Below are positions 3,991 to 17,589 of a stretch of DNA of 62,508 nt, one piece after another. Every line of letters starts with the position of its first letter. The first letter of the stretch is position 1. The stretch covers positions 293,318 to 355,825 of the IMG/VR virus record IMGVR_UViG_3300014208_000001; one strand, given 5' to 3'. Source of the DNA: a virus (Duplodnaviria; Heunggongvirae; Uroviricota; Caudoviricetes). The notes below the pieces were generated by a model. The model did no database searches and was not told the origin of the DNA. It saw nothing but the letters and a program-made list of their open reading frames with translations. A program made the translations under genes and the position numbers.

Positions 3991-4640
3991 TGAAAATTTT
4001 ATATGTCACGCCAATTAAATGTGAACCATATGTAGTTTGTGTAGAATTAAATAAATCAATATATTATATTATAATAGATACACCTGGCGCTGTATACTTG
4101 TCAAAAACACAATTACACATTAATGATATCAATAATTGGTTAATTAAAGAAACACAAACAAAATATAATTACCGCGATCTGCTAAATATGTCCGAAAATT
4201 TTAGATATGGTTATGATTCGGCTATAATCAACAGTCAACAATATGAATGGCTACAGGAATCATTACAAAATATCATAAACAAAATATTTAGAACGAATAT
4301 AATATCGCATTTTAAAAATACTTATAGTATAGAATTATTAGATCATGATAAATTTTTAGATATCATAGATAGACTACGCACGCATACGATAAATTCACCA
4401 ACTATAAGTAATATAATTGCTAGATTATTAAAATACGCCGAATTGCATAGTCAAGAAAGCATATCATTTATTGAAAAATTAGCACAAAAATATAATTGTA
4501 AATTAACAAATCCAAAATATGAAAATGATCTGCATGATATAATTATAAAATTGTTAGATGATGAAATACATGATATTGATACTAATCATATCAAGTGCGA
4601 TGCCGATGATTTATTAAAACGTTATATTAAAAGTGTTTAA
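3990..4640 (+). CDS. hypothetical protein
   Basis: 216-aa ORF with TAATG coupling. Confidence 0.6.
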   Translation: MKILYVTPIKCEPYVVCVELNKSIYYIIIDTPGAVYLSKTQLHINDINNWLIKETQTKYNYRDLLNMSENFRYGYDSAIINSQQYEWLQESLQNIINKIFRTNIISHFKNTYSIELLDHDKFLDIIDRLRTHTINSPTISNIIARLLKYAELHSQESISFIEKLAQKYNCKLTNPKYENDLHDIIIKLLDDEIHDIDTNHIKCDADDLLKRYIKSV

Positions 4641-4692
4641 TAGCTGTATTTTTGTCTTATGTATTTTATTGTGTTGTTCACAAAGGTTTCAT

Positions 4693-6306
4693 ATGACACC
4701 AACAGAAGAAAACGACAACAAATTATATTCGCAAGATATGTATACGGGACCAACACAGTTCACGCATCTCCATAACCACTCGGTATGGTCACCTCTGGAC
4801 GGTGTTGGCACCCCGTTACAGTATGCCAAAGAATGTGAAAAACGCGGATATACCGCAATGAGTGCTACAGAACATGGAAATGTGGCCAGCATACCAGACA
4901 TGTATGTTCACTTTAAACAACGCAATTTAAAATTTATTGCCGGTTGTGAGATATACTACTGTGACCACGAACCATTACGCCAAAGCCAATATTTATCGCG
5001 ATCAGAATTAAAAAAATTAAAAATATCTAAAAACCAAGATGACATTAAATTATATTATAAATTAACCAGAAATAGACATCTTACAGTTTTAGCCAAAAAT
5101 ATGACTGGTTATCATAATCTTTTAAAATTAACAACTCAAGCATATGAAACTGGCTTATTTGGCATGGGTAGAACACAATATCCACGTATATGGTTTGACA
5201 AATTATGCGAATATAAAGAAGGACTAATCATATTATCTGGTTGTTTAAATGGTCCAGTATCACATGCTATACGTCATAAAGAAGGTAAAGATAAAAATGG
5301 CAATATCGAATATACAATAAGTGATAGAGAAAGATTGACAGATGCTATACAATATGTCAAAAAATTCAAAAAAGAATTTGGAGAAGATTATTTTATAGAA
5401 TTACAAATGCCAGGTATCGAAGATGACCATACGGTATTTAAAATGTTATTATCATTAGCCGATGAATATAATATTAAACCAGTATTAACGAATGATGTGC
5501 ATTATTTAACTAGAGAAGAGCATGAAATACAAAAAATAATGATGGCTATAGAGCAAGGAACAACAGTAAATGATCCTAACTTGTTCCATGTTAATAGCAG
5601 CGAACAATATATGAAAACACGTGGCGAATTATGGGCCACATTCAAAAATGGAAAATACTCACAAACAACTAACGACGCAATATTCGAACAGATGTGCGAC
5701 AATACATTATTAATTTCTGATAGATGTGAAAAATTGAATATCGACTCATCACCTAAAATACCACATATATCAAATGCTGACACAGAATTAAAAGATTTAG
5801 TACATAGAAAATTAAAAGAGCTTAAACTTGATATCAACACCGAAAAATTTAATATCGATGGCAAACTGGTAACATACAAAGAACAAGCCGACATTGAATT
5901 AAATAGAATAATTGAAAAAGGATTCTCTAGTTACTTTTTGATAACTAGGGAACTAATCAAATTTGGTAGAAGTAAAGGATGGCCTTTTGGCCCTAGAGGG
6001 TGCGTTACACCAGATTCATTGATTAATACCAGTAAGTCTGAGCAAAAGAAAATTATTGATATACAAATAGGAGATAAGGTTTTAGATGGTTTTGGTGATG
6101 AGCAAATCGTAGAAAATAAATTTATTTATGATGTGTCAGAAGAATTGTTTATTATCGAATTAGATGGGTGCGAATTAGAAGTCACAGCTGATCATAAATT
6201 TTATATCATTAGAAATGAGGTGGTTTTACTTTTACCTGTATATCAAATCAAAGATACCGATGAAATCATTGGTGATCTCTTGGATCAACGAGACATCCAT
6301 GTCTAA
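4693..6306 (+). CDS. dnaE: DNA polymerase III alpha, piece 1: PHP domain plus start of palm, ending in split intein N-half (IntN1)
   Basis: FTHLHNHSVWSPLDG, TEHGN, GCEIY, HLTVLAKNMTGYHNL, SGCLNG, TNDVHY, ELNRIIEKGFSSYFLI and GPRG|C motifs; ATG 4693 follows AAAGG. Confidence 0.95.
   Translation: MTPTEENDNKLYSQDMYTGPTQFTHLHNHSVWSPLDGVGTPLQYAKECEKRGYTAMSATEHGNVASIPDMYVHFKQRNLKFIAGCEIYYCDHEPLRQSQYLSRSELKKLKISKNQDDIKLYYKLTRNRHLTVLAKNMTGYHNLLKLTTQAYETGLFGMGRTQYPRIWFDKLCEYKEGLIILSGCLNGPVSHAIRHKEGKDKNGNIEYTISDRERLTDAIQYVKKFKKEFGEDYFIELQMPGIEDDHTVFKMLLSLADEYNIKPVLTNDVHYLTREEHEIQKIMMAIEQGTTVNDPNLFHVNSSEQYMKTRGELWATFKNGKYSQTTNDAIFEQMCDNTLLISDRCEKLNIDSSPKIPHISNADTELKDLVHRKLKELKLDINTEKFNIDGKLVTYKEQADIELNRIIEKGFSSYFLITRELIKFGRSKGWPFGPRGCVTPDSLINTSKSEQKKIIDIQIGDKVLDGFGDEQIVENKFIYDVSEELFIIELDGCELEVTADHKFYIIRNEVVLLLPVYQIKDTDEIIGDLLDQRDIHV
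6001..6303 (+). other. split intein N-fragment 1 (101 aa)
   Basis: starts with Cys (CVTPDSLI), IQIGDKV, block B LEVTADHKF; acidic; followed directly by a stop. Confidence 0.92.
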
Positions 6307-7300
6307 AATAATTAAAGTAATATACAATTGTGAAAAATGTGGTATTGAATGCACTACTACGAATCATAATTTAAGATATAGAAAGAATTATAAAAATGAA
6401 TATATATGTCAAAAATGTTTGATAAAATTAGAAAAGTCAATGGATGTATTTAAAGCTATTCCGGTTGAATTTCATTATCAAATATTTGCAAATTTAATCG
6501 AATATGAAATAGCTATACAATATTTATGCAATATATCAACAAATACATGTGTTAAATTCACATGCCAAAAATGTAATGGTATTAATATTATGCGCTGGCG
6601 TGATTTAGAACGTAGAAAATATCATAAATATGACAATATTTGCTCGAAATGTTTAAACAAATTAATACAAAATAATCCTGAAAAATTAGAAGCTAATAAA
6701 AATAATGCTAAGAAATTATGGTATAGTGAAGACTATAAATCACGTTGTTTAAGAGCATTTGAATCACATAATAAGAAAATGCAATTAGATCCAAAATATG
6801 CTAATAAGCATCGTAGAAAGTCTAAATCAGTTACTGGTAAGATTTTAATTGATAATCAACTAATTATATTTGATAGTGCATTTGAATTGATATTTTTATG
6901 GAGTATTAGAGGTAAATACAATATTATTAGAAGATGTGATTTTGCTATAGCATATAATAATCATTTTTATCATCCAGATTTTTTAGTTGTTGATAATGAT
7001 AATAATCGAATAATAATAGAAGTAAAAGGATTTTATAAAAATAATATTATTGCGAAACAAAAAGCTGCGGAACAATATATTATTGAAACTAATATCGCTG
7101 ATTCGTATATTTTATATGACACAGAACGTTTATTGTCTGAAAGTATTTTACATGGAATTGGTGGTGCTTACATGTGGAAACAAATCAAGGAGATAAATCA
7201 TGAAGCAATTATCAGCTTCACAGATCCGAAACATCAACGAATTGCAGAAATTGGTATCAACAGGTTCCGTAAAGAGATTAAAAATCAAGAGTATGTCTAG
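6299..7300 (+). CDS. free-standing putative homing endonuclease (Zn-ribbon repeats plus PD-(D/E)xK nuclease)
   Basis: CEKC, CQKC, CQKC and CSKC repeats; FDSAFE...YHPDFLV...IIIEVKG catalytic motif; lies between IntN1 and IntC1. Confidence 0.8.
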   Translation: MSKIIKVIYNCEKCGIECTTTNHNLRYRKNYKNEYICQKCLIKLEKSMDVFKAIPVEFHYQIFANLIEYEIAIQYLCNISTNTCVKFTCQKCNGINIMRWRDLERRKYHKYDNICSKCLNKLIQNNPEKLEANKNNAKKLWYSEDYKSRCLRAFESHNKKMQLDPKYANKHRRKSKSVTGKILIDNQLIIFDSAFELIFLWSIRGKYNIIRRCDFAIAYNNHFYHPDFLVVDNDNNRIIIEVKGFYKNNIIAKQKAAEQYIIETNIADSYILYDTERLLSESILHGIGGAYMWKQIKEINHEAIISFTDPKHQRIAEIGINRFRKEIKNQEYV

Positions 7301-7532
7301 ACGCCATTATACTGGTAAAGTATATGATTTGCAAGTTAGTGTTACTAATACATATAAATTAAATGGTGTTTTAAGTTCAAATTCTGCTGGCGGATCATTA
7401 GTATGCTTCTTAATAGAAATCACATCAGGCGTCGATCCCATGTTATGGGATTTATCGTTTGATAGATTTTTAAGTGCTAGTCGTGGCGGATATTTATTAA
7501 ACATCAAAATGCCAGACCCGGTGATACAATGA
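7200..7532 (+). CDS. dnaE: DNA polymerase III alpha, piece 2: IntC1 (7200-7382) plus 49-aa extein
   Basis: AAGGAG RBS; KIKSMSRRHYTGKVYDLQV...NGVLSSN|SAGGSLVCFLIEITSGVDPMLWDLSFDRFLS continues the DnaE GRGSAAGSLV..GIT.VDP...L.FERFL motif. Confidence 0.92.
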   Translation: MKQLSASQIRNINELQKLVSTGSVKRLKIKSMSRRHYTGKVYDLQVSVTNTYKLNGVLSSNSAGGSLVCFLIEITSGVDPMLWDLSFDRFLSASRGGYLLNIKMPDPVIQ

Positions 7533-7888
7533 TTACAATAACTATTGATATTGTTGTAGATGGTTCTAATTTTATAGGTACCGCAAAATGTGAATATATT
7601 GATCATTATGGTAAAAAATTAACATCTATTATGCCGCATGTTTTTAAAAATATCAATGAATCATATACTGAAGATTTATGCGAATTATGTTTATTAGTTA
7701 TGGTTTTACAAAATATAATACCAGGCCATAGAAAAAATATAACAATATTTGTTCATCATCAATTAATAATTAGTATTGTTAATAAAATTATAAAACCAAC
7801 TGGAATATATAAAAATTTTGGAAACAAGTTGCTTAAAATATTAACAAATTGCGATTCTTTTATAATAAAAAGATTAGAAAAGGTTTAA
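7529..7888 (+). CDS. hypothetical protein, possibly a degenerate RNase H-like fold
   Basis: IVVDGS...EL...LQ...ITIF..HQLII pattern. Confidence 0.4.
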   Translation: MITITIDIVVDGSNFIGTAKCEYIDHYGKKLTSIMPHVFKNINESYTEDLCELCLLVMVLQNIIPGHRKNITIFVHHQLIISIVNKIIKPTGIYKNFGNKLLKILTNCDSFIIKRLEKV

Positions 7889-7890
7889 TT

Positions 7891-8667
7891 ATGGAAATTG
7901 AGCGAGTTATTCAAGACATTATGAATGAATTTTCATTCAGAAAAGCAGTTGATAAAGTACGTATCAATGGGTATGATATTAATAATAATATTAATGCATT
8001 CTATAAAACAGAAGAAATACATATGTCATCATATACTCATATTAAATATGGTTTGGCCAGACTTTGTATACAACTTACGAACACACATCTAATTGTCGCA
8101 GCACCATCGTGGTTTTCAGAATTTAATATACAAAAATTTTCATTATTAGAAAATTTTGAAGATGAATTAAGATTTAGTGTTGAAAAATACGCTACTGACA
8201 TATCTCCAAAATATGATATTTATAAAAAATATCTTCAAATAGGCACACCATACAGTGAATATTTTAAGCGTTTTCATTACATAAAGGATATGCGAGATCG
8301 TCCACGCGCGTCTGTCATGTTTAATACCAGCATTCAAACACCTAATAAATATGTTGGTATGTATGCATTCGGCCCATTTAGTCATTTTGGGCGCGAAAAT
8401 TTAGTAATGGGTTTTGATGGTGAATATGTCATCGAAATGTATACAACGCAACGTGAACCCTGCGACTTCACGAGTGGTTCAACTGAGTATCATAATAAAA
8501 TGCATCTATTAAATACAAAAGCATTAAATTATTATGCATCAACTATGAATAAAACAAAAAGAGCATATTTACAATTACAGAAAGATAAAAGAAACGCACC
8601 GCCAATATCTAAAAATCCATGTGCGGAAATATTATTGAAAAGCAAAAAAGGTAAGAAAACGAAATAA
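7891..8667 (+). CDS. hypothetical protein
   Basis: long ORF; ATG 7891 follows AAGG. Confidence 0.6.
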   Translation: MEIERVIQDIMNEFSFRKAVDKVRINGYDINNNINAFYKTEEIHMSSYTHIKYGLARLCIQLTNTHLIVAAPSWFSEFNIQKFSLLENFEDELRFSVEKYATDISPKYDIYKKYLQIGTPYSEYFKRFHYIKDMRDRPRASVMFNTSIQTPNKYVGMYAFGPFSHFGRENLVMGFDGEYVIEMYTTQREPCDFTSGSTEYHNKMHLLNTKALNYYASTMNKTKRAYLQLQKDKRNAPPISKNPCAEILLKSKKGKKTK

Positions 8668-8669
8668 TT

Positions 8670-9104
8670 TTATAAATTCTTACGCATAGTAATTTCTTTA
8701 CATTTAAAACCGTGTTTCGCGTAAAAACCGGTATTATTTTCATTACATGATAATAATACTTTATAACATGATCTTAATGACGCTTCATTTAATAGAAATG
8801 ATACCATAGATTTACCTATACCAACATTTCTATAGCCTTTTTTGACTACAACATCCTCTATGTGTCCGATTGTGCTCAAACCATGTATTAATTTCTTCTC
8901 AAATAATATTGATGCTGTACCTATTACTATTATATCTATTACTAATATAACAATTTTATCTTGATTGATAATATGTTCGTACGCTTCGCGTAGTATTTTT
9001 TCATTTGGCGTAATGTTTGCTGGTGACAAATCGTTAAGCACAGTAAGATACTCATTCATTCGTTGAAAGGAGAGATGTTCAATATGCATAACTTTCCCTT
9101 TCAT
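8670..9104 (-). CDS. GNAT acetyltransferase, glucosamine-6-phosphate N-acetyltransferase (GNA1)-like
   Basis: EKKLIHG...GHIEDVVV...YRNVGIGK...CYKVLLSC....FYAKHGF. Confidence 0.85.
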   Translation of the reverse strand: MKGKVMHIEHLSFQRMNEYLTVLNDLSPANITPNEKILREAYEHIINQDKIVILVIDIIVIGTASILFEKKLIHGLSTIGHIEDVVVKKGYRNVGIGKSMVSFLLNEASLRSCYKVLLSCNENNTGFYAKHGFKCKEITMRKNL

Positions 9105-9133
9105 AGTTATATAATATTTGATATAACAATATT

Positions 9134-9820
9134 ATGAGTATATCATCACTTAATATTAATGACCATAGGCTAATAATTAGCGATCATGCTTGCTATAGAT
9201 GGCGCGAAAGGGGAAGTTGTTATATTAATATAACAGAAGCAGTACGTAAATCACAAATATTAACAGAAGAAGAAACGAAATTTATAACTGAATTACAAAT
9301 ATCATTAGATAGATATTACTCGATATTTGATAATAGATATGTATTCGTATTAGCATATGATAACGATATACTAACAGTAGTAACAGTAATCAAATTACAA
9401 TACGAATTAATACCAGGATCATTAAAAGCAGAACAACATATATCAAATAAAATAAATATATTAGAGTCATTAAATAATGAAACTTATATAGAATATATAC
9501 GTAAGCAAGCACTTATGTATAGCGCAACTGCAGCATTTTATAAATTATTAAAAACAAATCCATCATTATTAGATCATGCTACGTTTGATATACCACCAAG
9601 AATTCATTCAGTATTACTCGATGAATCATTACGTGATTTTAAACAATTTTGTCGTAGTTATTGTGTTCCAGCATTATTAGACCCAGTAGATGATTCATTT
9701 ATACTTATGCTGAATGATTTCGGCAAAATAAATTGTAAAATGTACGTAACCCATACAATAAAATATGTCACGCCAGAATTATTTTACTCATTAAAATCAG
9801 AAAACAAAATATTAACGTAA
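9134..9820 (+). CDS. hypothetical protein (N-terminal SDHAxxRWxER motif)
   Basis: 228-aa ORF. Confidence 0.55.
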   Translation: MSISSLNINDHRLIISDHACYRWRERGSCYINITEAVRKSQILTEEETKFITELQISLDRYYSIFDNRYVFVLAYDNDILTVVTVIKLQYELIPGSLKAEQHISNKINILESLNNETYIEYIRKQALMYSATAAFYKLLKTNPSLLDHATFDIPPRIHSVLLDESLRDFKQFCRSYCVPALLDPVDDSFILMLNDFGKINCKMYVTHTIKYVTPELFYSLKSENKILT

Positions 9821-9843
9821 TTCGCCATAACAAAGAAGCAACA

Positions 9844-10194
9844 ATGGAAATTGAAACACCAAAAGAAGAAAAAAAGCCCCCAGGGTTTGATTATCAAAAT
9901 ACGGCATTTTATTTAATGCGGCCACACTCAATGTCTGTGATAGAAGCGTATAAAATAAAAAACAAAGCAGAGCATGCTGCTTTAATTAAAAAAGCGGTCG
10001 ATTTGCAATTGTATGTGTGGTATTCTAAAGCCGATGAACCCAAAATTTATATTGTAGACTTTGATAGTATACCAGAAATAGCTTATACTAATTTGACCAA
10101 ACATGATATATCTAAATTAATATGCCCAAGATGCGGAAAGTCATTAAAAAGTAAATCAGGTTACACTTTACATATGAAGCAAATCCATGGTTAA
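9844..10194 (+). CDS. protein with C-terminal C2H2 zinc finger
   Basis: CPRCGKSLKSKSGYTLHMKQIH. Confidence 0.7.
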   Translation: MEIETPKEEKKPPGFDYQNTAFYLMRPHSMSVIEAYKIKNKAEHAALIKKAVDLQLYVWYSKADEPKIYIVDFDSIPEIAYTNLTKHDISKLICPRCGKSLKSKSGYTLHMKQIHG

Positions 10195-10399
10195 GAAACA
10201 ATACGAAATCCGCAAAATATATAGGCCAAATCTCCTATGGGAGTATCAAGCTTTTAGAGTTGTAAACGATGAAGCTAAAGGCGTACCACCGCAATTAAAA
10301 ACAGAGTATGTTGAACGTATTATGGCTGAGGGGCCAAAAGACGCCGTCGATAAATATTATTTTGAACACATGAATTCTGACATGGATTTATGGGCATGA
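10187..10399 (+). CDS. hypothetical protein
   Basis: 70-aa ORF overlapping both neighbours. Confidence 0.55.
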   Translation: MVKKQYEIRKIYRPNLLWEYQAFRVVNDEAKGVPPQLKTEYVERIMAEGPKDAVDKYYFEHMNSDMDLWA

Positions 10400-12033
10400 T
10401 GAATTGGACAGAACTTCAACGAGAATCATTTAAATTATTGATTCAAAAAAAGTTAGGGCCAAAATATCAAAAACGATTAATATTTGAATTTAAAGAAATA
10501 GAAAAACAAGGAGCCAACGCATATTGGCTCAATATTATAAATAACAAATTAAAATTCACTGATAATCCTAATAAATTATTACTGCCATGGCTGCATTCGG
10601 CGGTCATAGATGATAGTGATCCTTTAGACGATCATACAATCACAACAGCAAATTTCAATATTATTAAAAAATATCAAGATGAGCATGGGGCATTACCAAT
10701 CGGTATTATAAAAGATACTGATATGCCAGATATCGATATTGATTGCTTACCAATGGCTAGAGAACATATTAAAAAATTCGCAATGGCAAAATATAACATT
10801 ATATCGAATGATAATTATGGAGCAGTGTGTAGTGTGGGAGCGTGGCAAACATTTAAATTCAAAGCGGCATTACGAGATGTTGCATCAGCAACCGGATTAT
10901 GCAGCAAAAGTGAAATATTCGAATTAACAAAATTATTACCTGATGAAGTAGATGAAATAAAAGAAGGAGGATTATCAACATGTAAAGGAAAAATAATAGA
11001 TATAAATACAAATATCACAAAAGATTGCAAAACATCACATAGATTAATCGAATGTCCAAATTGCGCGAGTAAAGAAACAGAATCACCGACTATAGGTCAA
11101 GTTTTAAATGACCATAAATATCTAACAGAATTCTACACAAAATATCCAACCATAGTAGAATCTGCTATCAATTTAATAGGACGAGTGCAACACATTGGTA
11201 TGCATGCTGGAGCGATTATAATCGCTGATAGGTCATTATTTGGTAATATTCCGATGTCAAAAAGCAAAAGTAAAGGTTCAGAATATTGGGTTAGTATGTG
11301 GTCAGAAGGCAGAAATACTCAATTATCAAAATTTGGCTTCACAAAATGGGATATTTTAGGATTAAAAACACTCGAGTATATTTATGAATGTTGCAAATTA
11401 TTAAGGTCAACTAAGAACATATATTTTGGCGAAAAAACAACAGATCCAGAATATGTGCCAATGGATGGTTGGGATCATGTTAATCCAAAATTTGTAGGAG
11501 AAATCGAAGGTACTAAAGTTAAAGGTATGGCTGGGTATTATTATATTAATGACGAGAAGAAGTGGATTAGCCTAAATGATGATAATGTTTTAAGGACAGC
11601 TAGAGAATTAAAAACGGATACTGTATTCCAATTTGATACAGAATTGGCAAAATCAATATTAAAAACAGGTACACCAAAATCATTTGATGACTTAATGTTA
11701 CTAAGTGCAATGGGCCACCCTGGTCCGATGGACTGCTGTGCGCCATACGCAAAAGTGTTAACAGATGACGGATACGTGGAAATTAAAGATATTGACGGAT
11801 CTCAAAATATAGCGTATATCAATGACCAAAATGAAATATCATACACAACTCAATATCTAATTGGAGAATCTGGCGAGAAAGAAATATTTGAAATCGAAAC
11901 CGAAGATGGAAATATTGTTCCAGTATCAAAAGACCATTTGATACTGACTCCAAAAGGATTTATCAAAGTTCAAGATCTAAAAGAAAACGATGATATTATG
12001 AATTTAACGCCACAAACACCAAAAGAAACATAA
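10390..12033 (+). CDS. dnaE: DNA polymerase III alpha, piece 3: catalytic palm/thumb ending in IntN2
   Basis: MPDIDIDC, KAALRDVA, GMHAGAIII, KWDILGLKTL, VFQFD and HPGPMD|C motifs. Confidence 0.95.
   Translation: MGMMNWTELQRESFKLLIQKKLGPKYQKRLIFEFKEIEKQGANAYWLNIINNKLKFTDNPNKLLLPWLHSAVIDDSDPLDDHTITTANFNIIKKYQDEHGALPIGIIKDTDMPDIDIDCLPMAREHIKKFAMAKYNIISNDNYGAVCSVGAWQTFKFKAALRDVASATGLCSKSEIFELTKLLPDEVDEIKEGGLSTCKGKIIDINTNITKDCKTSHRLIECPNCASKETESPTIGQVLNDHKYLTEFYTKYPTIVESAINLIGRVQHIGMHAGAIIIADRSLFGNIPMSKSKSKGSEYWVSMWSEGRNTQLSKFGFTKWDILGLKTLEYIYECCKLLRSTKNIYFGEKTTDPEYVPMDGWDHVNPKFVGEIEGTKVKGMAGYYYINDEKKWISLNDDNVLRTARELKTDTVFQFDTELAKSILKTGTPKSFDDLMLLSAMGHPGPMDCCAPYAKVLTDDGYVEIKDIDGSQNIAYINDQNEISYTTQYLIGESGEKEIFEIETEDGNIVPVSKDHLILTPKGFIKVQDLKENDDIMNLTPQTPKET
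11734..12030 (+). other. split intein N-fragment 2 (99 aa)
   Basis: CCAPYAKVLTDDGYVEIKDI...IFEIETEDG...VSKDHLILTPKGFIKVQDLKEND; followed by a stop. Confidence 0.92.
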
Positions 12034-12037
12034 AATT

Positions 12038-12598
12038 ATGAGCAATCCTACACAAGAATTGATAAAATTATCAGCACAACATGGGACATCGTTTTTGACA
12101 GATACTATATTAACAAACCCTAAATTCGCAATATGGAGCGGTTCATCTAAGCCGTTCCAACATCATTATGGTAAAGGTGGACTAGCCCAACATACATTAG
12201 AAGTCACACAATTATGTTTACAATCTAATATAACACTTGGTAACCCAGTACCAATTCAACATATTTTGCTAGCCGCGATTTTTCATGATTGTGGCAAAAT
12301 GTGGGATTATGAACCGCTTGATGATTCTTTTGAAGAGTGGCAAGGTACTATTCATAAAAGAAGAATTCATCATATTTCTAGATCAGCTATAATATGGACG
12401 GAAACAATCAATAATTTTAAAAATGCATTTGCATTCCAATATAAAGATGAAATCTTACACGCTATTTTATCACATCATGGGTTACGCGAATGGGGTAGCC
12501 CAGTATCGCCTAACACCAAATTAGCGTGGCTATTACATTTGTGTGATGGTATTAGTGCAAGAATTAATGATTGTGACAAGCAATCAGATATTACGTAA
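12038..12598 (+). CDS. HD-domain phosphohydrolase (YhaM-like HD domain)
   Basis: HH..GGLAQHTLEV, FHDCGK, HAILSHHG..EWGSP and LHLCD motifs. Confidence 0.88.
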   Translation: MSNPTQELIKLSAQHGTSFLTDTILTNPKFAIWSGSSKPFQHHYGKGGLAQHTLEVTQLCLQSNITLGNPVPIQHILLAAIFHDCGKMWDYEPLDDSFEEWQGTIHKRRIHHISRSAIIWTETINNFKNAFAFQYKDEILHAILSHHGLREWGSPVSPNTKLAWLLHLCDGISARINDCDKQSDIT

Positions 12599-12811
12599 TT
12601 CGAGTTCTAATGTAATCGATTGTGCCAATAGTTTTTTAGCGTGAGTTTGTTGTATACTATCTGATAATAATTTATTGGTCATATCAAACAATAACGGGGA
12701 CACTATAATTAAATCTTTGCATGTATAAATAAATATTTTTAAACATATATGTGGATATCCTTCTATGGCATTTTCTAATATTTCTTCAACTATTTGTAAT
12801 TCTGCTTCCAT
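12584..12811 (-). CDS. hypothetical protein
   Basis: third of three tandem minus-strand ORFs. Confidence 0.5.
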   Translation of the reverse strand: MEAELQIVEEILENAIEGYPHICLKIFIYTCKDLIIVSPLLFDMTNKLLSDSIQQTHAKKLLAQSITLELELRNI

Positions 12812-12820
12812 AATGTATAT

Positions 12821-13135
12821 TTATGTGTAGAATTCGTTTAATTCATTAATTTCAATGATCATTGATATTTTATCTATGATATTATCACAAGAATTTTCGG
12901 TATCAATTAGATTAATTATTTCTTGATGTACTATTCTCATTTGATCGGTAGTAGCGCCACATATATGCGACGCGTAAATAGTGACCATTATAGAATCATC
13001 ACAACGTACATTAAACCAGACAATTCTATATTGGTTTCTGGCAACGAAAGCATTATTTATGATATCGATTCCTAAATATTTAGAAATGCGATCACATATC
13101 ATGTCTTCGATAGCAGATTTTACATGATTAGTCAT
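12821..13135 (-). CDS. hypothetical protein
   Basis: 104-aa ORF coupled to the upstream ORF. Confidence 0.55.
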   Translation of the reverse strand: MTNHVKSAIEDMICDRISKYLGIDIINNAFVARNQYRIVWFNVRCDDSIMVTIYASHICGATTDQMRIVHQEIINLIDTENSCDNIIDKISMIIEINELNEFYT

Positions 13136-13470
13136 TTATAATCTCTAAAAGATTCCATACGTCTAGTGATCAAAATATGAGTTAATGTTGATAATACTTT
13201 TTCAATTGATGTATCTAATTTATCAGGTAATGTATTAATTTTAATAATATTATTTGATCCATTACCATTCCATATTTTTACTATTATATCACCTCCATCA
13301 TAAATTGTAGTGATCACTGATGTATGCACTACGACTTTACCATTCCGTAAATTATTAATTTCATAAAAATCGGCATATAATACAGTAGTTGGTTTTTCAA
13401 AATTATATCTTTTAGCAATAGCTTCTATAACCATATCATGGACGGCACGCAATAGGTCTAAATCGTACAT
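13132..13470 (-). CDS. hypothetical protein
   Basis: 112-aa ORF. Confidence 0.55.
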   Translation of the reverse strand: MYDLDLLRAVHDMVIEAIAKRYNFEKPTTVLYADFYEINNLRNGKVVVHTSVITTIYDGGDIIVKIWNGNGSNNIIKINTLPDKLDTSIEKVLSTLTHILITRRMESFRDYK

Positions 13471-13503
13471 AATACATATTGCATTGCGTCGTATTTTGTT
13501 AAA

Positions 13504-13926
13504 ATGTTACTATCAAACGGAAACTTATGGGATCATAATGATGGTTATATTGCTATCACAACAAATGGAGTAATAAAAGATAATGGCGATTTAGTTATGG
13601 GTGCTGGTGTCGCATTAGAAGCTAAAGTAAGATATCCAGAGTTACCAACAATCTTAGGAAAATATGTTTTTGAATATGGGAATCAACCTTATATATGTAA
13701 GAAATTTAAATTAATATCATTCCCGACTAAACATCATTTTAAAAATCCTTCTGATATTGATTTAATATTGCAAAGTGCACGTATTCTTACAAAAATGTTA
13801 GATAGAATTGATATTCAAAAAGTTTATATGCCAAAACCTGGTTGTGGCAATGGTGGATTACAATGGATATATGTCAAACCATTATTAGAAAAGATATTAG
13901 ATGATCGATTCACAATTATCGAGTGA
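13504..13926 (+). CDS. macrodomain (ADP-ribose binding/hydrolase) protein
   Basis: ITTNG...VMGAGVA, FPTK..F..PS and PKPGCGNGGLQW..VKP motifs. Confidence 0.88.
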   Translation: MLLSNGNLWDHNDGYIAITTNGVIKDNGDLVMGAGVALEAKVRYPELPTILGKYVFEYGNQPYICKKFKLISFPTKHHFKNPSDIDLILQSARILTKMLDRIDIQKVYMPKPGCGNGGLQWIYVKPLLEKILDDRFTIIE

Positions 13927-14440
13927 AATAACAATACTAATAATCGATTCATTTAAAACATATATAGGATTATACCATAAATTATACCATGATGAATATG
14001 ATATATATCTACATAAAGGTGGCATAATAGAAATCGTGTTGAATCACAATCGTGGAACAGGGTCATTAACATCAAGTTGTGTATCTGTTTTAATTAATTT
14101 GACTAATAATATTATGATACGATATCATAACGCATATAATAGCGCATTTTGTGGTGTTTTACATAATGAAAATGTTGACTATGATGAGTTTGATCCTTCA
14201 ACTATTTTAGATAAACTCGTGATGCTTCATGTTTATAACACATTACAATTACATACAAGATATGCGACGTATATACAAGATACTAATACTATATATATCA
14301 AAAGTTTGCGAATAACATTACTATGTGACTTATTCACTTTATATGATTCTAAAAATGAAACAACTACTGAAATACATAGGGGTATACACAACGAGTCTAA
14401 AATGATTGAATTTGTACTAAGGAGTAATCATGAAGATTAA
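13901..14440 (+). CDS. hypothetical protein
   Basis: 179-aa ORF. Confidence 0.55.
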   Translation: MIDSQLSSEITILIIDSFKTYIGLYHKLYHDEYDIYLHKGGIIEIVLNHNRGTGSLTSSCVSVLINLTNNIMIRYHNAYNSAFCGVLHNENVDYDEFDPSTILDKLVMLHVYNTLQLHTRYATYIQDTNTIYIKSLRITLLCDLFTLYDSKNETTTEIHRGIHNESKMIEFVLRSNHED

Positions 14441-16055
14441 ATCGATCACGAGCAAAGGGGTAATGAAAACATATGATATATTAAATAACGCACCGAATAA
14501 ATTATTAAATCAAGGTAATTTTATAATTGATAATATAATAGTACATAATTCGATACCAGATGTCATCAAAAATCGTGATGATAAAACTGATAAATGGAAA
14601 GCAGAATTAAAACATTTATCTAATGATATATATAACATATTACAAACCACATATGGTAAAATTGTGTTTCAAGAGCAATTGGCAAATATTTGGCAAATAG
14701 TTGGTGGGTTTACCGCTACAGAAGCCCAAGAAGCACGAAAATCAGTAGCCAAAAAATGGGTAGAAAAACTTAAACCCATCAAACAAAAATGGATAACTGG
14801 TGCAACAACAACATTAGGATATGATGAAGCTATAAAGTGGTGGGATGATATGGAGTCTTTCGGACGATATGCTTTTAATAAGTCACACTCTGTTGCATAT
14901 AGTTTAGTTGCATATAGATGTTTATATTTGAAAACATATTATCCAGCCGAATGGTGGGCGACAGTTATGACTAGATGCCATCGGCAAAAATTAACGAGAT
15001 TTATGGAAGTGGCCAGATCAGAAAATGTTAGATTTGGTATTTTCGACCCAAATCATCTTACTGGCGATTTTACAGTTCTTAAAGACAATGATGGAAGCGA
15101 TTATATAAGTCCAGGATTGTTAGGTGTTAAAGGAGTGAAATCAAAGGCTACCGTGTACGAAGGTAAAGGTGATTTCACAAATATAGATGATTTTATAAAT
15201 GCTAAAGGTGCCCATAAAGTAACAATGGAAAGATTAATAAAATTAGGTACTTTTTCACGCATGGAAGGTCATAGCAATATAAAAGCAACATGGATGTGGT
15301 ATTTGTATGCGTACACTAAAGACACAAAAGTGCGTAGTGAAATAAAGGCACAACTATTAGAGGTTCAAGGATGGGATCAAAATACCATACGTGAAGAAAT
15401 AGAACGTCAAGCTAAAGAATATAGAATTTTATATCCAAAGCGAAATAAAATACCAACCAAAATATTGAATTGGAAACCTAAACCAAATGATGATAGAGAA
15501 AGTGTTATGAAATTGGTCGTAAATGATTACACATTATCTGAATTACTTGCATTCGAAAAAGATTATTTGGGGTATTATTTAAGATCGCCATTAGATATGT
15601 ATAAATTATCTGGTTTAACAATATCATCAGCTAAGAAGTATTTTAAAAATAACGCCGGTGCTGAATCATATAAAACAATAGCCAGAATTGAATGTGTCGT
15701 GCAAAATGCATACATAGGTCAAACTAAAGACAAAAAATCGACATTTGCCAGATTGGCTATCACTGATGGCAAATTAACAGCTAGTGTATTTTGCTGGGAA
15801 AAAGAATTAGATGATATAGTGGCGCAATGGTATCATAAAGAAAATTCAATTGATTTATTGTTTGTTGTTGGTAAATTAATGTCAGAAGGTAAAGAAGAAG
15901 AAGCAACACAATTTTATTCAGATGTATATGATTCATATTTAAAATATATAACAAGTAAAGGAGTAAAAATTAGCGTGGTATATAATGAGCAGAGATCAAC
16001 ATACAGTATTGCCAAAAGAACGCCAATCACATTTTTAGAATTGAGAGCCACATGA
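14430..16055 (+). CDS. dnaE: DNA polymerase III alpha, piece 4: IntC2 (14430-14549) plus fingers/HhH/OB-fold extein
   Basis: AAGGAG RBS; MKIKSITSKG..KTYDI...NFIIDNIIVHN|SIPD; TYGKIVFQEQ, RYAFNKSHSVAY, YLKTYYPAEWW and EKDYLGYY motifs. Confidence 0.95.
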   Translation: MKIKSITSKGVMKTYDILNNAPNKLLNQGNFIIDNIIVHNSIPDVIKNRDDKTDKWKAELKHLSNDIYNILQTTYGKIVFQEQLANIWQIVGGFTATEAQEARKSVAKKWVEKLKPIKQKWITGATTTLGYDEAIKWWDDMESFGRYAFNKSHSVAYSLVAYRCLYLKTYYPAEWWATVMTRCHRQKLTRFMEVARSENVRFGIFDPNHLTGDFTVLKDNDGSDYISPGLLGVKGVKSKATVYEGKGDFTNIDDFINAKGAHKVTMERLIKLGTFSRMEGHSNIKATWMWYLYAYTKDTKVRSEIKAQLLEVQGWDQNTIREEIERQAKEYRILYPKRNKIPTKILNWKPKPNDDRESVMKLVVNDYTLSELLAFEKDYLGYYLRSPLDMYKLSGLTISSAKKYFKNNAGAESYKTIARIECVVQNAYIGQTKDKKSTFARLAITDGKLTASVFCWEKELDDIVAQWYHKENSIDLLFVVGKLMSEGKEEEATQFYSDVYDSYLKYITSKGVKISVVYNEQRSTYSIAKRTPITFLELRAT

Positions 16056-16678
16056 GTTATAATCCATATGATTTAATCACAATCACGTTTAATGGCCAAA
16101 GTGGCTTATATGCTAGACCGATTGAATTAGACAGTGAAATAGTTGATCATAATAAAATGACTAATGCAGCCGGTGAATTGGCTAAGCCTAAAACATTCGT
16201 TACCACATGTCCAACATGTGGTGATGGTGTTCAATTCGAAGCTGATGTATATCAGCCATATCATGTAGATTATACGTGTGAGTATTATTGTGACAGATGT
16301 CCTATTAAAACCAAACCATCAGTTAATCCATTTAGAACTGTTGATATCGATTTGAATCCGGTTGTGTCAGAAACAATCGAACCAATTAATGATGATGATC
16401 ATCACTCTTTTGAAAAGAATGATGTACCAATCGAGAATAAAGAGCTATTAGAAACTCTATCGAATATTACGGATGAATCATTAGAAGTCGTAATGACCAC
16501 GCCGATGCCATCAGAAACACTTTCTCAACCGGTCGAAGAGAAAGTTGAACCATCGGTGCCAAGTGACGTGGCTATGCCAAGCGAACCACAAGAAGCCGAT
16601 CAGAAATATGATACAAAATTAACTGCCGAATCTGAAGATGATAAGAAGAAACCTAAGAAATCAAAGAAATCTGAATGA
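16052..16678 (+). CDS. hypothetical Zn-ribbon protein with acidic low-complexity tail
   Basis: CPTC...CDRC; E/P-rich C-terminus. Confidence 0.6.
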   Translation: MSYNPYDLITITFNGQSGLYARPIELDSEIVDHNKMTNAAGELAKPKTFVTTCPTCGDGVQFEADVYQPYHVDYTCEYYCDRCPIKTKPSVNPFRTVDIDLNPVVSETIEPINDDDHHSFEKNDVPIENKELLETLSNITDESLEVVMTTPMPSETLSQPVEEKVEPSVPSDVAMPSEPQEADQKYDTKLTAESEDDKKKPKKSKKSE

Positions 16679-17589
16679 ATTTTATACTCGGATCTGGGAT
16701 AAATGCGTTATTAGCCAAATTAATAATGGGTAATTCGTGGCAGATTGTGCCATTTGGTAGGAGTAGGTTTTTTTCATTTAATCCTGCATTATGCGATAAT
16801 TTCATAATCAAAGATGATAGAATATCAGAATTCTTAAAAGACGCATTTAAAATATCATCAGAATCATTCGATTATAAGTGTGCGTATTCTACAGGAGGTC
16901 ATATATACAATGAATATGATACTAATCTAACTGACGATTGGTTACATAAAATATATAATGGTCAAGCACCTGGCCATTTACAACATTATTATAAATCACA
17001 TATGAAATTTGAAGTGTATAATTTACGAATTAATAAATTATACACTACTTTATTGAATAGTATGAAAGATGAAATTATAAGTAATTCGACGCTTGGAAAC
17101 ATAACATCAATTAATGATGGATACTTTATACGCAATGGTAAAAAAGAAGAGTACAATAAAATAATAAACACTATCCCACAAAATGCATTTATGACATTAT
17201 GTGGTAAAACTAGTAATTTAATTGCCAAAGATGTTTCAATATTGCATATTGAAACAGCTAAACTAAATTTTGAAGGATATAATCAGTTATGGGTAACTGA
17301 TAGAATGTTTGATTTTTATAAAGTTACTCAAGTTAGTCCTAATAGATATGTATTTTATTGCCATAATGATATCCCACAGCCTGGACCATATTTTATGCCG
17401 ATTTTGGGCAATGATTTTGATATATTAGATGGTACATCAATACAACATATGCTACCGATTAATAAGGTTACTCAATTTGATACAGATAATATAAAACATG
17501 TAGGATCGATGGCACAATGGGATGTTGGAATGGATGTTGGATCATGTATTATAAAATTATTGATGCTATCAACGTGGGGCAGGAACTGA
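16675..17589 (+). CDS. FAD/NAD-binding oxidoreductase-like protein
   Basis: N-terminal ILGSGINALLA Rossmann-like motif; IINTIP; C-terminal GSMAQW. Confidence 0.55.
   Translation: MNFILGSGINALLAKLIMGNSWQIVPFGRSRFFSFNPALCDNFIIKDDRISEFLKDAFKISSESFDYKCAYSTGGHIYNEYDTNLTDDWLHKIYNGQAPGHLQHYYKSHMKFEVYNLRINKLYTTLLNSMKDEIISNSTLGNITSINDGYFIRNGKKEEYNKIINTIPQNAFMTLCGKTSNLIAKDVSILHIETAKLNFEGYNQLWVTDRMFDFYKVTQVSPNRYVFYCHNDIPQPGPYFMPILGNDFDILDGTSIQHMLPINKVTQFDTDNIKHVGSMAQWDVGMDVGSCIIKLLMLSTWGRN

Follow-up and report, generated by a model that had tools for sequence, protein, structure and literature searches.

A phage family-C DNA polymerase encoded in four genes, with two split inteins and an intein-free break

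Gene organization of the DnaE locus

The window analysed here is a stretch of 62,508 nucleotides (nt), positions 293,318 to 355,825 of the IMG/VR record IMGVR_UViG_3300014208_000001, a Caudoviricetes genome of 355,825 base pairs (bp) with direct terminal repeats that is rated 100% complete. It encodes a family-C DNA polymerase, DnaE, in four open reading frames (ORFs), p1 to p4, together with two split inteins, each consisting of an N-terminal half (IntN) and a C-terminal half (IntC): intein 1 lies at the junction of p1 and p2 (site 1), and intein 2 at that of p3 and p4 (site 2) (Table 1). The four ORFs, their junctions and the charges of the intein halves are as described in an initial annotation of the sequence. 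Against profile hidden Markov models of Pfam and NCBIfam, the exteins occupy consecutive, abutting segments of the DnaE profile TIGR00594 (1-362, 363-395, 397-641 and 654-1022), and the order of DnaE features is complete: PHP domain, GS motif, three catalytic aspartates, fingers and HhH. The joined exteins align without gaps over both junctions with intein-free relatives, P0121 (73% identical) and P0041 (51% identical), the latter having the same junction residues as the window DnaE. Two trans-splicing reactions with two products, as initially proposed, are the best reading of the locus.

Some details of that proposal have to be modified. The product of 485 amino acids (aa) stands, but that of 949 aa is more likely to be of ~947 aa, since p3 probably starts at 10396 or 10399, where an ATGA overlaps the upstream stop and which fits the database protein P0001 (545 aa). 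The description in four pieces also holds, but it had missed a nuclease gene between IntN1 and IntC1; no nuclease was detected between the halves of intein 2 in the window. The FNKSH motif is intact at 14865-14888, with an Ala at the position of the cyanobacterial Cys, so that the cyanobacterial site is uninterrupted and both insertion sites differ from it, as had been noted.

Table 1. Features of the DnaE locus in the window; all four coding pieces lie within 4693-16055.
Feature	Position	Strand	Length and remarks
p1	4693-6306	+	436-aa extein and 101-aa IntN1
Chain A N-extein	4693-6000	+	436 aa; PHP domain and start of palm; ends directly before the serine of the nucleotide-binding GS motif
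IntN1	6001-6306	+	101 aa; Cys1, block-B TxxH at 6184-6195, net charge -14; TIGR01445 26 bits
PD-(D/E)XK (TnsA-N-like) endonuclease	6299-7300	+	333 aa; free-standing; Cys-rich N-terminal half; putative homing endonuclease of the intein-1 cassette
p2	7200-7532	+	61-aa IntC1 and 49-aa extein
IntC1	7200-7382	+	61 aa; block-F Asp, C-terminal Ser-Ser-Asn, net charge +9; strong Shine-Dalgarno (SD) sequence upstream
Chain A C-extein	7383-7532	+	49 aa; Ser+1 of the GS motif, arginines equivalent to E. coli R390/R396; tail predicted to dock into chain B
p3	10390/10396-12033	+	448/446-aa extein and 99-aa IntN2
Chain B N-extein	10396-11733	+	~446 aa; ~110-aa N-terminal docking domain, palm aspartates, Zn-ribbon-like insert, start of fingers
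Chain B catalytic DxD	10726-10743	+	within the p3 extein
Chain B third catalytic Asp	11344-11361	+	within the p3 extein
IntN2	11734-12033	+	99 aa; Cys1, block-B SxxH at 11926-11937, net charge -12; TIGR01445 28.6 bits
Six unrelated ORFs between the intein-2 halves	12038-14440		HD-domain protein, three reverse-strand ORFs, a phosphatase-annotated ORF and one without annotation
p4	14430-16055	+	40-aa IntC2 and 501-aa extein
IntC2	14430-14549	+	40 aa; block-F Asp, C-terminal His-Asn, net charge +3; strong SD upstream
Chain B C-extein	14550-16055	+	501 aa; Ser+1, fingers with uninterrupted FNKSH motif, HhH, C-terminal region

Conservation of the two inteins

Both inteins carry the residues of class 1 inteins (Cys1, terminal Asn and Ser+1), a block-B motif (TADH in intein 1, SKDH in intein 2) and a YD motif in block F of IntC, and both IntN exceed the TIGR01445 cut-off when scanned separately. 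The block-B His motif is present in all recovered IntN of the family (31 at site 1 and 23 at site 2, counts that include some duplicates). Nonsynonymous divergence (dN) is far below synonymous divergence (dS) in all four halves (0.19 versus 1.66 in IntN1 and 0.35 versus 2.18 in IntC2), and all four are under purifying selection.

Concerning structure, P0134, a contiguous intein-1 allele that is 62-67% identical to the window halves, is predicted to adopt a HINT fold (predicted local distance difference test, pLDDT, 86.7), and its model matches gp41-1 and other HINT domains in Foldseek (E ~1e-7 to 1e-6). The HINT assignment of intein 2, which has His G:6, comes from sequence only, and IntN2 matches the structures of the Npu and Ssp DnaE inteins weakly (E ~6e-4).

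Four alleles of the family have contiguous inteins at site 1 (L162:2858-4810, protein P0131; L163:10001-11899, protein P0134; P0157; and L209), with 149-192 aa inserted inside the GS active-site motif. Such insertions must be excised, which argues for the activity of intein 1, and we infer that both inteins splice in trans.

A polymerase in two chains

The assembly of four genes by inteins, as initially described, holds for two junctions, but the break between p2 and p3 is intein-free and an old feature of the family. The genes for chain A (p1 and p2) and chain B (p3 and p4) are separate at every family locus inspected. A survey of relatives found intein-less alleles (P0121 and P0041, see above): A homologues (~472 aa) are intact at site 1 in 91 of the top 120 matches, and B homologues (~905 aa) are full-length (>870 aa) in 73 of the top 120. 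The DnaE of this family is thus natively encoded in two genes, and the break between p2 and p3 is old, intein-free and non-covalent. This break divides the GS motif and the R390/R396 equivalents, in the 49-aa extein of p2, from the three catalytic aspartates in p3.

The predicted A/B complex of one intein-free relative has an interaction prediction score from aligned errors (ipSAE) of 0.81, whereas the best control reaches 0.00; of 80 solved complexes, 58 attain the ipSAE mark applied, as do 2 of 110 mismatched pairs. At least 94% of the contacts agree between runs, the partner pLDDT is at least 87, and the tightest predicted contacts are those of the last ~20 residues of A with the N-terminal domain of B. 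The score may nevertheless stem from resemblance to single-chain DnaE structures.

The N-terminal domain of B was considered as a duplicate of the pre-catalytic segment of A, but the comparison was weak (hhalign probability 1%, E 0.049) and this remains a suggestion. A further intein-free break at B residues ~80-115 splits the docking domain from the catalytic part in L041, L047, L052 and L061. The palm of chain B contains a four-cysteine Zn-ribbon-like insert (window 10726-11100) that is invariant in the family alignment. In seven A chains (P0129, P0138, P0169, P0203, P0219, P0224 and P0232), the PHP domain holds a contiguous intein immediately before the Cys of the GCE motif, and some of these chains also carry the split intein at site 1.

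Intein 1, its nuclease and the mobility of the cassette

The nuclease family at site 1 has an invariant PD...ExK signature and Cys pairs, while its match to TnsA-N is weak. In the window, its gene shares 8 nt with p1, at the stop, and 101 nt in a different frame with the beginning of p2, and it occupies the same position in L024, L039, L055, L164 and the P0247 contig. Upstream of it, small hairpins are predicted (a prediction made without shuffle control), and the 8-nt overlap takes the place of a spacer. About 33 N-terminal codons of IntC1, which form a helical extension, are dual-coding with the C-terminus of the nuclease (window 7200-7300). Both frames are kept even in alleles without the nuclease, and synonymous divergence in this overlap is below that of the IntC core. 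This extension may derive from the intein or from the nuclease; the two nuclease homologues checked that share the C-terminal motif both belong to the same cassette.

A pair of near-identical loci, L123 and L124 (99.4% and 98.7% identical over 19 kb), differ by a 1.39-kb intein-plus-nuclease cassette, present at the GS motif in L123 (10549-11936) and absent at the corresponding place in L124 (12385-12390). This shows a recent gain or a precise loss of the cassette, and since the two loci differ by just this element, the cassette is mobile. Directly downstream of it a few bases are changed, as homing with co-conversion would leave, which suggests a gain rather than a loss. The pair represents a ready substrate for the question of homing at the GS motif.

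In other site-1 alleles the nuclease is decayed (L006), deleted (L007) or replaced (L008), but all of them keep its last codons in the overlapping frame. Moreover, the contiguous allele P0131 keeps the start Met of IntC and traces of both ends of the nuclease in other frames, which suggests that it is a split intein re-fused through deletion of the nuclease.

Recurrence of two split inteins in one DnaE

Relatives were recovered by alignment-based scans of viral contigs, a scan with a single sequence having given no matches. Across the family, DnaE is interrupted by split inteins at four positions: in the GS motif (a), at two nearby sites in the fingers (b and c), and within FNKSH (d). Six of 63 dereplicated loci spanning both chains have two split inteins, a frequency that is biased by the fact that some of these loci were picked for being split. 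These are the window (a+c), L055 (a+c, the same layout), L008 and L039 (a+d), L004 (c+d) and L006 (a+b); four partial contigs (L001, L164, L202 and L219) can be added. Therefore, nine contigs besides the window carry two split inteins in the same DnaE, one of them at the same two sites, and the layout in four pieces with two inteins is real and recurrent.

For the related finger sites b and c, IntN and IntC have inversely correlated net charges (Spearman -0.99), and their polarity flips together between alleles, in a sample of nine pairs that are related by descent and include two near-duplicates. L055 has opposite charge polarities at the same two sites as the window. A reversed polarity (basic IntN, acidic IntC) was observed in many site-c alleles (L002, L054, L055 and L201), unlike the window and L001. 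The site-c allele of the window is itself closer to the inteins of site b, which lies 27 residues upstream.

Further arrangements were seen in some loci. L001, L004, L202 and L219 encode a middle DnaE piece of ~255 aa with an IntC at its start and an IntN at its end, and are candidates for natural three-segment tandem trans-splicing. L004 also has a DUF723 ORF at the place that matches the site-2 gap. An extra break near B residue 350 is present in L006 (13478-21494), L007 (16529-21421) and L209 (9989-13012), with degenerate intein-like tails lacking Cys1 and the terminal Asn; in L006 and L007 it surrounds a DUF723 ORF. In L006/L050, DnaE is spread over five pieces across ~20 kb, L006 combining sites a and b with a further non-intein break.

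Proposed mechanism and alternatives

The explanation that best accounts for the whole, to which we assign a probability of roughly 0.8, is a heterodimeric family-C polymerase made of four gene products by two trans-splicing joins and docking, following two selfish invasions. The acidic IntN1 and the basic IntC1 would associate and undergo class 1 splicing in trans (Cys1 thioester, branch at Ser+1, Asn cyclisation), joining 436 and 49 aa into a chain A of 485 aa, and IntN2 and IntC2 would likewise join ~446 and 501 aa into a chain B of ~947 aa. A and B would then dock non-covalently, the 49-aa tail from p2 packing into the N-terminal domain of B and placing the GS motif and the R390/R396 equivalents beside the three catalytic aspartates. 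As to origin, two independent selfish invasions would have affected a polymerase that was already in two genes. At site 1 the split intein plus nuclease would still be mobile as one unit, while site 2, with its nuclease lost and other genes inserted between the halves, would represent a later stage of the model of 2009 (PMC2677866).

Several observations weigh against this explanation. IntC1 has no His at F:13 or G:6, as is the case in all site-1 alleles seen; these residues assist Asn cyclisation but are not obligatory in every intein (PMC4031507). Both window pairs have an acidic IntN and a basic IntC and the same Cys1/Asn/Ser+1 chemistry, making mis-capture between pairs possible. Lastly, we infer that the phage relies on DnaE alone, but its genome also contains an ORF of 393 aa (L168:2367-3545, genome 254.9-256.0 kb) with a weak match (34.7 bits, slightly above the cut-off) to the C-terminal region of family A DNA polymerases.

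Given the shared polarity, charge does not distinguish the two pairs in this genome; they would probably discriminate through shape and sequence rather than net charge. IntN1 and IntN2 are 25% identical, as are IntC1 and IntC2; site-a inteins form their own clade (support 100/100), and IntN2 of the window clusters with site-b inteins at 96/90 (bootstrap not settled). In a library of distant inteins, 15 of 16 were orthogonal (PMC7090010), and in Npu DnaE orthogonality is not explained by charge alone (10.1101/546465). On balance, the two window pairs are likely to be functionally orthogonal.

It is conceivable, though unlikely, that both inteins splice without being strictly orthogonal, cross products (A1-B2 and B1-A2) being either tolerated or suppressed by pre-assembly of the exteins and local translation. 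The common polarity and identical junction nucleophiles would favour this, as would the insufficiency of charge alone in Npu DnaE and the recent acquisition and mobility of site-1 cassettes, which leave little time for co-adaptation. The divergence of the two inteins, the separate site-1 clade and the behaviour of distant library inteins speak for discrimination, however, and genomes with two split inteins recur at least 10 times.

We consider it improbable that one of the inteins, intein 1 being the more plausible, has ceased to complete splicing and serves as a non-covalent clasp. The missing C-terminal histidines would be compatible with such a role, the 49-aa extein alone has many predicted contacts with B, and clasp-like breaks without Cys1 or terminal Asn do exist near B350 in L006, L007 and L209. 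Yet precisely these residues, lost at the clasp-like breaks, are kept across site-1 alleles along with the block-B His, block-F Asp and Ser+1, and the contiguous insertions in the GS motif would hardly be tolerable in an unspliced enzyme. Rejoining at the level of RNA or ribosome (intron splicing or bypassing), or an artefact of assembly or a pseudogene, is hardly credible given that there is no Rfam match in 4000-17000, that ORFs occupy the gaps of 0.9 and 2.4 kb, that p2 and p4 are each preceded by an SD sequence, and that many independent assemblies carry the same junctions under purifying selection, which excludes the assembly artefact envisaged at the outset.

Beyond the trans-splicing heterodimer proposed for the window, the family might tentatively be viewed as harbouring, at four DnaE sites, a natural collection of split inteins that are fast and orthogonal to one another, including charge-reversed and three-segment tandem alleles, with orthogonality kept by selection; splitting would then be mobile, the split intein homing together with its nuclease, and reversible through nuclease deletion, rather than a one-way accident. 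We regard this broader view as somewhat less than an even bet.

Genomic context

We could not find any PolB (family-B DNA polymerase) in the complete phage genome. Four further inteins are present elsewhere (L166, L167 and L168; 180-185 kb, 201-205 kb and 259-261 kb), all within long open frames, so that only the IntN1, IntC1, IntN2 and IntC2 halves of DnaE are expected to compete. Two of the four, with LAGLIDADG motifs, are in a probable terminase large subunit (an assignment based on motifs, without a Pfam terminase match), another is in a class II ribonucleotide reductase (the C-terminal end of this intein was not located), and the RecA of the phage contains a mini-intein. Promoter-like sites show no excess (91 versus 95.9 in shuffled sequences). 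No close relative was found among cultured phages, the best matches being 22-28% identical, and naming a host from one GTDB match (an 8-kb contig of a Deltaproteobacteria metagenome-assembled genome) was rejected as too weakly founded.

Comparison with known systems

Each ingredient of this layout separately has precedent. Three phage-like DnaE loci from Global Ocean Sampling (DnaE-1 to DnaE-3) were described with split inteins at non-cyanobacterial sites, one of them with part of an additional intein (Dassa 2009, PMC2677866). As in those fractured genes, site 1 has the N-part with IntN, a free-standing endonuclease on the same strand, and IntC with the C-part; the split falls between the N and C motif blocks, the halves have opposite charges, the host is DnaE and the sites are non-cyanobacterial. 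Both window sites have IntN and IntC genes on the same strand with exteins that rebuild a conserved enzyme. However, the nuclease is of the PD-(D/E)XK TnsA-like type and not GIY-YIG or Vsr-like, a difference that concerns the 2009 sample and not the definition of the layout, and it overlaps both neighbours where the 2009 loci have a 27-51-nt spacer; a hairpin also lies upstream of the endonuclease in the 2009 loci. The window also has a further intein-free break between A and B. Site 1 is thus a fractured gene as defined in 2009, with a different type of nuclease, and site 2 matches the loss of nuclease and uncoupling of halves that the model predicts (PMC2677866). At one site, the family ranges naturally from intein-free alleles through split ones that have the nuclease, and others in which it has decayed or disappeared, to alleles that are contiguous again. 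Together with the 99%-identical pair of which one member has the cassette, this makes the 2009 model of the origin and spread of split inteins directly testable.

The cyanobacterial Ssp/Npu split DnaE intein resembles those of the window in host gene, in its acidic IntN of ~100 aa and basic IntC of ~40 aa, and in Cys1 and terminal Asn. It differs in being inserted directly before the C of CFNKSH with Cys+1, whereas the window, which is not a member of this group, has other insertion sites, Ser+1, two pairs instead of one, a phage genome, and a site 1 that is still mobile. The minimal Pol III alpha of group 2.2 jumbo phages (Iyer 2021, PMC7824862) is also an intein-free catalytic module of two proteins with the NTP-binding and Mg-binding parts apart, but that form is minimal and accompanied by a family-B polymerase, unlike the full-length window DnaE (PHP, fingers, HhH), for which no PolB was found. 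In the literature searched, with most subscription journals lying outside it, there is neither a report of a natural polymerase with two complete split inteins, or of a phage protein with two natural ones, nor a description of a replicase that is built from four polypeptides and has its active site on two chains.

The ligation of multi-fragment proteins is limited by the supply of orthogonal split inteins (PMC7090010, PMC12707363). Pairs found together on an essential enzyme within a single infected cell represent pre-screened candidates. As in engineered tandem trans-splicing (PMC7090010, PMC12707363), two split inteins are found in one compartment, and L001, L004, L202 and L219 even have the middle piece with IntC and IntN; unlike the engineered systems, these are natural, and the inteins of the window serve two separate chains rather than one chain of three segments.

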